Shown here one piece after another: positions 12,001-15,000 of a stretch of 64,000 nt of DNA (its first letter is position 1; each line of letters starts with the position of its first letter). A program made the position numbers. Where the stretch lies: the NCBI RefSeq assembly GCF_013167455.1, contig NZ_CP038328.1; one strand, given 5' to 3'. The stretch comes from Escherichia coli O157:H7 (lineage in GTDB: Bacteria; Pseudomonadota; Gammaproteobacteria; Enterobacterales; Enterobacteriaceae).

Positions 12001-15000
12001 GGATTTCTCATTTCCCCGTCCCCAGTCAGGCTGATTCAACCAGCGCGAAAAAGTCTCACGCACAACGCCTAATCGCGTGCTCTGCTCGTCCGTTGCTTCC
12101 TGGCGCGAAATGACTTCACTGAACAGCTGGCGAGTGTTGAAGTGGGGAACTACGCCGTGAAAAACAGGAAAATGAAACCCAGGACGAAACCCTGACTCGC
12201 TCAATTCCATTTTGACTTGTTGCTCAATGGGGCGAATAACATCGGTTAACACCCGGCAAAGGGTGGATTCAAGCTCGGCAAAACGCAGCGTAAAGTCGCG
12301 ACTGATGGTGTTCTGCGCCGTCTGTAACAGTGTCTCACAGCGGGTACGAATCTCGCTTAACGGCTCCGAATCATCCTGAAACAAGGCGGCTAACTGCACC
12401 TTCAGCGCATCTTGCTGTTGACGCAGAAAGTGGTTGGCGGAGGTCAGGGCCAGCTCGATTTCATGTTTAATCTCGCCGCTCACCTGCGCCTGATTGAGTT
12501 GCAATAGCTGCAAACTTTCTTCGATCTGGTGGATATTTTGCCGCAATTGTTCACAAGCGACGTTTAACCCGTGCGCACGAAAATCCAGGTATTCCCGCGC
12601 CTGCTGCGCGTAATTCAACAGTTTATGCGCGGCAGATCGCAGAGCATACAACGAGGCGTTAGCGTAAGCGGCATGAAGCAACATCTGAATTGGCTGGGCG
12701 AACAGCGAATCTTCCCACAACTGATCGGCAGCATGACGAATATGTTCGAGGTCCGCCAGATCGGCATGACGCCAGCGCCTGCCGAGCGCGGCATGGGCAA
12801 AATCTTCCACCCAGCGTTGTTGCTCTGGCGGTGGTAACTTACCGTTGTTGGCTAACTCATGGCGCGCCCGATTTGCCAGGTAGCCCCACATCGACGACAC
12901 CGGAAATATCTGCTGTGGCGTAATACAGCCTTTCATCAGCGTCCCGGAAATCAGTGCCCGCACCTGGTCGGCGTCGTCACTGTTACGATCCTGTTGATCG
13001 AACTTATTGACCAGCACATACAGTGGCACCGATTGCCCCACCGCCAAAATCGCCTCACGGACCTCTTCATCGGAGATCGATTTCAGTTGCGTATAATCCA
13101 GCACCGCCAGTACCGCCGAGGCGCGTGCCAGCTGCTGGTTAAGCATTTTTTGCAGATGCGGTTGCCCGGCTTCATTTGGCCCGGGGGTATCCAGTAACGT
13201 CAATTGACCGGGATAACTTTCCAGCCCCGCCAGATGGACAAACTCCACTTCAATCACGGGAATATGCTCAATGGCGGCGTAAGCAGAAAAAGGAAAATCG
13301 ACGTCCAGCGCCTTCGCCAGTCGCACCAAATCATTCAAACTTTTCAGACAATGAAAAATAGGCTGGGCACCCAGATAATATTTTTCGAAAGCGACGCCAT
13401 TTTCGATCCGCTGCATAAGCGCACGCATATCTTTATCTATTTCCAGCACATCGGTCAGATGCTTAATATCGCAATCACGCAGGCGCTGTTGTAATTTTTG
13501 AATTAAACAATCGATTGGCGCGACATGTGAAAAATGCAGTACCGGTTCCTTTTGGCCGGGCGTATGGCGAATAAGCGTCGGCAGCGCAGTCATTGGGCGA
13601 TTGCGATTAGGCAGTACCTCCGTACCAACAATGGCATTAATGGTGGTTGATTTCCCTGCTTTCATGGTACCGACAATCGCCAGCACCATTTCCAGTCGGG
13701 AAATTTTACGCAACTCATTATTCAGCATCGCGTGACGCTCGGCGATATTAGGCTGACTCCAGGGTAAAGCCAGTTGTGGCGCATCGTCTCCGGGTACAGA
13801 GAGAGGCATTTTTTCCAGTAACTGCAACTGTTGGCGAGAAAGCTGTAACAGCCGTTCAGCCTCCTGACTTAACTCATACAGGGTCTGTGTGTACATAGAA
13901 AATTCTTCCTTAAAGCAAATTTTATTACTTTTATTTAGCCAGATTGTTTTTGAGTTCTGTTTTCGGCTTTTATAATTACTGCAAGAAATAATTTTATATT
14001 TAGAGTGTTGTTTTTTATTAGAATAAATAACATCTTCCGATACGTTTAAAACGTCAGAAAGATAAAAATATCATGTGAATAAAAAAAAGAACAAGTAGAG
14101 CATTAACCTTATCTTAAATAATAAATGGAGGCAAAAAGATTATTTTCTTTTTGCGTTTCCTTTCAAATGAAAACGATCGTCGTCTAAAATCAGCAGTACC
14201 CCCGACAAACTCAGGGATTTTGTGTATAATTGCGGCCTTTTTCGGCAATCTGCCGTTTTTTGGCGCTTTTGCCCTGCTGACTTTTGAGGAAATCCACATG
14301 TCATTACCACACTGCCCAAAATGCAACTCCGAATACACTTACGAAGATAACGGCATGTACATCTGCCCGGAATGTGCCTACGAATGGAACGACGCAGAAC
14401 CTGCACAGGAAAGCGACGAGCTGATCGTTAAAGATGCTAACGGCAATCTGCTGGCTGACGGCGACAGCGTTACCATCATTAAAGATCTGAAGGTGAAAGG
14501 TAGCTCTTCGATGCTGAAAATTGGCACCAAAGTGAAAAACATCCGCCTGGTTGAAGGCGACCATAACATCGATTGCAAAATCGACGGTTTTGGTCCGATG
14601 AAACTGAAATCTGAGTTTGTGAAAAAGAACTGATTGTATTGTGATCGGTAAGCCGGATAAGGCGTTTACGCCGCATCCGGCAACAGTGCCAGATGCCTGA
14701 TGCGACGCTCGCGCGTCTTATCAGGCCTACAAATTCCCGCACCCTCCGTAGGCCGGATAAGGCGTTTACGCCGCATCCGGCAACAGTGCCGACTGCCTGA
14801 TGCGACGCTCGCGCGTCTTATCAGGCTTCCCTCTCATCTGTATAAATTTCGAACTACACTTAACTGGCTTCTCTTAACTGAGGTCACCATCATGCCGTTA
14901 AGTCCCTACCTCTCTTTTGCCGGTAACTGCTCCGACGCGATTGCCTATTATCAACGTACGTTGGGCGCTGAACTGCTCTATAAAATCAGCTTCGGCGAAA

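Follow-up and report, generated by a model that had tools for sequence, protein, structure and literature searches.

Identity of the Element between yjdM and yjdN

The intergenic region between phnA (yjdM) and phnB (yjdN) of Escherichia coli O157:H7 carries two nearly identical palindromic units. What is this element, how did its two units arise, and what does it do to the two genes around it? The region was analysed within a 64,000-nt stretch of DNA (assembly GCF_013167455.1, contig NZ_CP038328.1), referred to as the window, in which all positions are given. The element is the O157:H7 allele of REP325, an array of repetitive extragenic palindromic (REP) sequences of the bacterial interspersed mosaic element 2 (BIME-2) type, with two 100-nt periods and four hairpins. 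The locus is already known: Rfam has a family for which it serves as the type example, and two dedicated studies have used it as their model REP. Taken as a whole, the array probably stabilizes the 3′-end of the yjdM message, attenuates transcription before yjdN, and is resized by exchange or conversion.

The intergenic region (14634–14891, 258 nt) separates two genes in the same orientation. The upstream gene phnA/yjdM (14298–14633, + strand), whose 3′ untranslated region (UTR) carries the array, encodes a protein of 111 aa with the Pfam domains PF03831 (E 9e-35) and PF08274. The downstream gene phnB/yjdN (14892–15335, + strand) encodes a protein of 147 aa with a glyoxalase fold (PF00903 and PF06983). 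RefSeq annotates yjdM and yjdN on identical O157:H7 sequence. The array is wholly extragenic: it begins after the yjdM stop (14633) and ends before the yjdN start (14892). An earlier note on this DNA had placed the element between the two co-oriented genes, and the Pfam domains and RefSeq annotation agree with this. A 601-nt stretch over the array and 800 nt of flanks were 100% identical to O157:H7 genomes, covering yjdM, the array, and yjdN.

Both units matched RF02564 (naRNA4, "nucleoid-associated noncoding RNA 4") over model positions 1–77 of 77 on the + strand. Unit 1 (14651–14727) scored 97.9 bits and unit 2 (14751–14827) scored 105.1 bits, against a gathering score of 59.5. Qian 2015 described REP325 as six Y-l-Z2 repeats (naRNA1–6) with five identical "U motifs" as joints, apparently read through from the yjdM (phnA) promoter toward yjdN (phnB) (PMC4550694). 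The MG1655 RefSeq record has no REP feature annotated at the locus, so the label REP325 rests on the papers and on sequence identity.

The O157 allele and REP325 of K-12 MG1655 (naRNA1–6; RF02564 naRNA4/CssrE) share the locus, the Z2-linker-Y units, the inter-unit linker, and the flanks, and unit 2 of O157 is identical to the sixth and last unit of K-12. The alleles differ in size: O157 has two units and four hairpins in 258 nt, whereas K-12 has six units and 12 hairpins in 657 nt. The Z2 loop of unit 1 is the internal-type TTTA in O157, whereas K-12 and all other multi-unit alleles read have CTCG in the first unit. The right flank also differs (GGCTTCCCTC in O157, GGCCGCCTC in K-12).

According to Ton-Hoang 2012, BIME-2 elements contain z2 and y REPs in alternating inverted orientation, separated by short linkers and arranged in tandem copies; the copies are well conserved within one locus and their number varies between strains (PMC3333891). 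The O157 array agrees with this family in REP types, linkers, and copies. Its y and z2 REPs alternate in inverted orientation, and its units are 96–100% identical to the K-12 REP325 units. The inner linker (13 nt) and inter-unit linker (17 nt) are too short for the long L motif of BIME-1 with its IHF site. The sampled E. coli genomes carry 1, 2, 4, 5, 6, or 7 units in 100-nt steps, and the location is extragenic, as in other BIME-2 elements. The assignment to BIMEs made in the earlier note was therefore confirmed. The GTAG tetranucleotide 5′ of the REP foot is kept at the two inner REPs (CTAC 14727–14730, GTAG 14748–14751). The array departs from the family only in its outer heads, which are degenerate: GTAA (14648–14651) on the left and TTCC after 14826 on the right (GGAAG in the reverse complement).

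Three more RF02564 matches were found in the window on the − strand, at 17304–17384, 46364–46434, and 56956–57027 (63.0, 64.1, and 76.9 bits). They are other Z2/Y BIME units, the first of which lies between phnD (16281–17297) and phnE. Their identity to the yjdM–yjdN units is 74–87%, clearly below the identity of these two units to each other.

Structure of the Two-Unit Array

The repeat search showed one direct-repeat family with two 82-nt copies, at 14645–14726 and 14745–14826 (+ strand), each composed of a Z2 REP, an inner linker, and a Y REP. The start-to-start spacing is exactly 100 nt. The ungapped alignment of the two units gave 94% identity (5 mismatches over 82 nt), and the gapped alignment of the core (76–77 nt) gave 74/77. 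The differences comprise A/G at 14651/14751 and three bases of the inner linker (CAGATG at 14690–14695, CGACTG at 14790–14795). The earlier note had read two units of about 78 bp with 2–3 differences, which is close, and the divergence that it named as grounds for giving up this reading was not seen. Thirty dinucleotide-preserving shuffles of 300 nt containing the array served as a control. At an identity of at least 90%, the longest direct repeat of the real sequence measured 86 nt, whereas the shuffles gave none above 13 nt, which excludes a chance origin of the repeat. Tandem Repeats Finder reported no array in 14000–15500, probably because fewer than two full periods are present.

The head-to-tail arrangement proposed earlier holds for the direct orientation of the units. 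The copies are not contiguous: the inter-unit linker CTAC-AAATTCCCGCACCCTCC-GTAG (14727–14751, + strand) lies between them and is absent after unit 2. This linker, the "U motif" of Qian 2015, measures 17 nt without its CTAC and GTAG ends and has no second site in the window even when 3 mismatches are allowed. It is C-rich and G-poor (C 11 and G 2 of the 24 nt at 14727–14750).

Each unit contains two imperfect palindromes (GCCGGATAAGGCGT/ACGCCGCATCCGGC and GCCTGATGCGACGC/GCGTCTTATCAGGC), so that four palindromes alternate along the array as GCCGGATAAGGCG...CGCCGCATCCGGC and GCCTGATGCGACGC...GCGTCTTATCAGGC. RNA folding gave four hairpins of −21 to −22 kcal/mol each, all on the + strand. The Z2-type hairpin of unit 1 (14652–14681) is an inverted repeat of 14 + 14 nt folding at −21.0 kcal/mol (z −5.3), and its head is GTAA, where the canonical head is GTAG. 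It is followed by the 13-nt inner linker AACAGTGCCAGAT (14682–14694), which carries 3 of the differences between the units. The Y-type inverted repeat of unit 1 (14695–14726; −21.4 kcal/mol) is followed by CTAC. In unit 2, the Z2-type inverted repeat (14752–14781; −21.5 kcal/mol) has the canonical GTAG head, and the Y-type inverted repeat (14795–14826; −21.8 kcal/mol) is followed by TTCC instead of CTAC. The fold of the whole intergenic RNA had a z of −7.7. In its minimum free energy structure, Z2 of unit 1 pairs with Z2 of unit 2. This pairing should be a thermodynamic alternative only, because the local hairpins should form first during transcription.

The intrinsic-terminator scan of 14634–14891 reported no terminator, and no T-run was found 3′ of any hairpin. 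The last hairpin is followed by UUCCCUCUCAUC. A canonical intrinsic (Rho-independent) terminator was ruled out, since no hairpin directly precedes a U-tract.

The non-repeated right flank (14827–14891, + strand) reaches to the yjdN start and is C/U-rich (C 19 and G 7 of 65). It contains TATAAA (14841–14846), the 10-mer CTACACTTAA (14854–14863), and a Shine-Dalgarno GAGG (14880–14883). The 10-mer lies about 30 nt 5′ of the yjdN start codon and is the first copy of a short direct repeat, CTACACTTAACTG/CTTCTCTTAACTG. In the cross-genus alignment it did not vary among 14 sequences, which represent the five genera Escherichia, Citrobacter, Kluyvera, Enterobacter, and Lelliottia, and the remaining intergenic sequence was unrelated. 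Candidate roles for CTACACTTAA are those of an operator, a promoter element, or a signal in the yjdN 5′ UTR.

Copy Number across E. coli

The copy number of the unit was compared across complete E. coli genomes, as the earlier note had proposed. A query of 400 nt of yjdM flank and 400 nt of yjdN flank matched 5417 of 5426 genomes. The figures come from an evenly spaced sample of 59 full-length rows and from rank bracketing with a 601-nt query; repeats may be collapsed in some assemblies, including that of strain OV2. The copy number was variable, from 1 to 7 units, and the intergenic lengths of the 59 genomes were discrete and 100 nt apart. One unit (about 160 nt) was present in 36 genomes and two units (about 259 nt) in 5. 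Four units (about 458 nt) occurred in 2 genomes, five (558–560 nt) in 6, six (658–660 nt) in 9, and seven (about 758 nt) in 1. About 60% of the sample thus has one unit, about 9% two, about 15% six, and about 31% four or more.

Rank bracketing gave one or two units in 3723 of 5425 genomes. Two-unit alleles numbered approximately 464–556, of which 311 were at least 99% identical to the window and of the O157:H7 type. The six-unit K-12 allele used as a model is a minority state, since most genomes have a single unit and O157:H7 has two. Conclusions from K-12 that depend on array length, Rho dependence among them, may therefore not hold for most strains.

The one-unit E. coli allele also occurs, with almost no base changed, on two contigs from metagenome bins, L011 (USCO01000113.1, "uncultured Clostridiales") and L033 (JALHEL010000372.1, "Leptolinea sp."). 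Contamination of these bins with E. coli DNA is the most likely source.

Origin of the Two Units

The earlier note took the near-identity of the units as a sign of a recent local duplication. In this case, a single BIME unit would have been duplicated in tandem within the O157:H7 lineage only a short time ago. The 94–96% identity of the units is in line with this, and E. coli O145:H28 has a single unit that is only one nucleotide from O157 unit 1. O145:H28 reportedly shares a lineage with O157:H7. We nevertheless consider a fresh duplication unlikely. The units are local paralogues, as the earlier note had it, but the comparison of alleles does not fit the word "recent".

Ten other alleles were aligned in the 100-nt register. 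The core of unit 2 had 0 differences in 76 nt from the terminal unit of K-12 (6 of 6), SLK172 (7 of 7), Z1323 (4 of 4), M37H, OV2, and 0H15 (2 of 2). Unit 2 thus matches the terminal unit of six other strains, and its inner linker sets it apart from unit 1. It is also identical to unit 2 of VL7S7, and unit 1 is one nucleotide off unit 3 of VL7S7. The inter-unit linker is common to all multi-unit alleles read, with a few junctions ending in CACCA rather than CACCC. It is not the junction formed by the flanks of one-unit alleles, and a two-unit allele therefore could not arise anew from a one-unit allele. The same layout, Z2-l-Y-linker-Z2-l-Y with a homologous linker, was found in a divergent Escherichia (L014; 97.9% nucleotide identity in yjdM and 93.7% in yjdN), whose two units are only 60/77 identical (78%). 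This was the only non-coli-like Escherichia recovered by an exact 24-mer scan of species-representative genomes, which also recovered Citrobacter, Kluyvera, Enterobacter, and others, but not E. albertii or E. fergusonii. In addition, all nine distinct O157:H7-type genomes among the matches listed carry the identical two-unit allele. The allele is therefore fixed in the O157:H7 lineage and not visibly unstable, rather than newly arising.

The close likeness of the two O157 units has its cause in unit 1, which has the internal-type Z2 loop TTTA. In the other multi-unit alleles read, the first unit has the CTCG loop and 6–9 differences from the remaining units. Internal units are 73–76/76 identical across the alleles read.

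Changes in array size are visible in both directions. The K-12 laboratory strain OV2 (L008, NZ_CP195020.1) matches MG1655 in the flanks (384/384 and 358/359) and has two units only. These are the first and last units of K-12, joined via the hybrid inner linker CCAGACTGCC. Either the array contracted from six units to two in this laboratory lineage, or the assembly has collapsed it. The other contraction is O145:H28, whose single unit has the internal-type Z2 loop. SLK172 shows an expansion: its units 2 and 3 are identical, which gives an extra internal unit.

Since unit 2 and the linker are common to distant strains and the layout recurs in the divergent Escherichia, the array is old. As judged from these alignments, the near-identity of the units reflects concerted evolution via expansion, contraction, and conversion. 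For the two-unit state of O157, contraction is at least as likely as duplication.

Conservation in Other Genera

The genes yjdM and yjdN are also neighbours in Citrobacter, Kluyvera, Enterobacter, and Lelliottia, where the yjdM stop is directly followed by a REP of the type particular to each genus. The gap in E. coli holds REPs only. In Citrobacter, by contrast, one genus-type REP is followed by a GC-rich hairpin of 13 pairs and a T-run, resembling an intrinsic terminator. This terminator-like hairpin lies at 1806–1837 of the C. youngae locus (L013) and was also found at the Citrobacter loci L017, L025, L035, and L039. It looks as if a structured 3′-end or terminator between yjdM and yjdN is conserved, with different sequences serving in each genus.

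Predicted Role in Expression

Transcription from the yjdM promoter would run into the array, which would form the 3′ part of the yjdM message. Its four hairpins of about −21 kcal/mol most likely block 3′-to-5′ exonucleases and would thereby stabilize yjdM mRNA. They would also make most transcripts stop before yjdN and so hold yjdN at a level far lower than that of yjdM. In the DNA itself, the 100-nt direct repeats probably undergo unequal exchange, slippage, or conversion, possibly with the help of a REP-associated transposase. Such events would leave the copy number variable between strains (1 to 7) and the units nearly identical. We infer that the two-unit allele acts like the K-12 allele, with an attenuation that is probably weaker and Rho-independent. 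K-12 has five C-rich linkers and the O157 allele has one, so the Rho-dependent part is probably smaller here. The C-rich and G-poor stretches of the array, namely the inter-unit linker and the right flank, are candidate sites of Rho loading and are suggestive only.

REPs of the classical malE-malF type are stabilizers of 3′-ends. The array has in common with REP stabilizers and attenuators that its stable GC-rich hairpins lack a U-tract and lie in a 3′ UTR between co-oriented genes. The functional data come from K-12, where the RNA ratio of yjdM to yjdN was about 35 with REP325 and about 1 after its deletion; yjdN increased about 8–10 fold, and yjdM at its native locus decreased about 3 fold (bioRxiv 10.64898/2026.03.23.713779, preprint). 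In the same study, REP325 RNA appeared as a ladder of truncated species with a major product about four hairpins long. The earlier note had suggested a terminator or stabilizer. The experiments on six-unit K-12 in the 2026 preprint agree with this suggestion, which is extrapolated here to the two-unit allele.

Several points weigh against this role in O157:H7. The effect of four hairpins would be an extrapolation from K-12, and the functional study is a preprint. REPs are cited as partial Rho-dependent terminators in that preprint (10.64898/2026.03.23.713779). The sole direct test at the yjdM–yjdN locus, however, saw Rho dependence with 12 hairpins and not with 2–4: under bicyclomycin, only the full array of 12 hairpins showed more read-through, and K-12 fragments of two and four hairpins (pnaRNA4, pnaRNA34) were insensitive. 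In the O157 allele, the terminating effect may therefore be weaker or may come about in another way. Stabilization was also strongly context-dependent, and genome-wide REPs gave no general gain in half-life (10.64898/2026.03.23.713779). The second unit need not be selected, because about 60% of E. coli genomes have one unit. Finally, the promoter-like TTATCA-17-TATAAA (14818–14846) could feed yjdN independently of read-through. Shimada 2014 reported TTATCA-16-TATAAA as a binding site of the RpoD holoenzyme in the yjdM–yjdN spacer of K-12 (PMC3946193).

TTATCA lies inside the 3′ arm of the last Y REP, which may thus supply the −35 of a yjdN promoter. The consensus promoter scan missed this site, as TATAAA lacks the final T.

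A broader version of the expression role treats copy number as an evolutionary dial on the yjdM:yjdN ratio, with the terminal Y REP giving the TTATCA −35 of a yjdN-proximal promoter. The number of hairpins would set the protection of the 3′-end, and the number of C-rich linkers would set the added Rho-dependent termination. One-unit, two-unit, and six-unit alleles would then be graded, and the K-12 "model REP" would be an atypical extreme. We offer this tentatively and regard it as rather doubtful.

Alternative Explanations

Among the alternatives to a stabilizing and attenuating array, a selfish or neutral REPIN/BIME cluster fares best, although its probability is modest. Here, a REP-associated tyrosine transposase (RAYT) and recombination would propagate and resize the cluster, which would have no local function under selection, and the expression effects would be by-products. 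The copy number of 1 to 7 without obvious constraint suits such a cluster. TnpA-REP binds, cleaves, and recombines BIMEs in vitro and needs GTAG (PMC3333891), and the two inner REPs retain GTAG/CTAC. REPINs are inverted REP pairs that can form a long hairpin (Bertels and Rainey 2011, PMC3116915), and Y1-linker-Z2 of the O157 array can fold into such a hairpin at −26.3 kcal/mol. A mobilome preprint counts REP325 among predicted RAYT-associated REPINs. Unlike RAYT-mobilized REPINs, the array is fixed in position and resizes in place; evidence of transposition was not found, and no RAYT search was made in the window. The different genera also have a REP after yjdM, with the terminator-like hairpin added in Citrobacter, which suggests a useful position. 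Moreover, deletion of REP325 alters growth and the yjdM and yjdN levels in K-12 (10.64898/2026.03.23.713779). The selfish or neutral explanation is compatible with a role at the RNA level.

The array could instead act mainly at the DNA level, as a BIME-2 site of gyrase binding and cleavage that handles supercoiling locally, between one transcription unit and the next. According to one study (PMC6379681), BIME-2 elements are enriched in gyrase cleavage sites, with a preference for Y REPs and independently of transcription; the array has two Y REPs. The available part of that study highlights other BIME-2 loci (sucC-sucB and tldD-yhdP) and does not name yjdM–yjdN. This explanation seems improbable as the main one, and it too is compatible with the RNA-level model.

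Much less probable is an effect on translation, in which the first REP stalls terminating ribosomes and thereby reduces the YjdM protein. Such a mechanism for REPs near stop codons was reportedly put forward by Liang, Rudd and Deutscher in 2015. The mobilome preprint places REP325 among the REPs within the 15-nt limit of the upstream gene, and the REP head does begin 14 nt past the yjdM stop codon. The stem proper, however, lies 18 nt past the stop (14652 and 14633), outside or at the edge of this limit. The K-12 data are already explained by RNA-level effects (10.64898/2026.03.23.713779).

The least credible explanation is that the units are naRNA4-like genes whose RNAs, together with HU, bridge cruciform REP DNA and condense the chromosome: Rfam places both units in its nucleoid-associated family, and Qian 2015 reported HU binding, decondensation upon REP325 deletion, and rescue by naRNA4 (PMC4550694), but the evidence against it is strong, as the 2026 study found nucleoid size unaltered by deletion or overexpression, no stable HU-cruciform-naRNA4 ternary complex, and no long-range REP–REP contacts by Hi-C (10.64898/2026.03.23.713779), and the single unit of most E. 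coli genomes is a poor fit to a dose-dependent structural RNA. The 2015 and 2026 studies share their last author, S. Adhya.

Other Features of the Window

A promoter-like CCGACA-17-TATAAT was found 5′ of yjdM, within 14202–14255. Downstream of it, the yjdM leader contains the small hairpin CGGCAATCTGCCG and a T-run resembling a terminator, which may form a leader attenuator. Both the promoter-like site and the leader hairpin are kept in Citrobacter, Enterobacter, and Kluyvera; in Kluyvera one A-U stem pair is changed to G-U.

The phnE gene of K-12 is cryptic owing to an extra 8-bp repeat. The phnE reading frame of the window (17340–18182, + strand) is uninterrupted, and the phosphonate operon may be functional in this O157:H7 strain. 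Two further Rfam matches in the window were above threshold: the enterobacterial small RNA STnc630 at 8819–8984 (− strand, 178.5 bits) and the selenocysteine insertion element SECIS_2 at 43841–43895 (+ strand, 87.1 bits).

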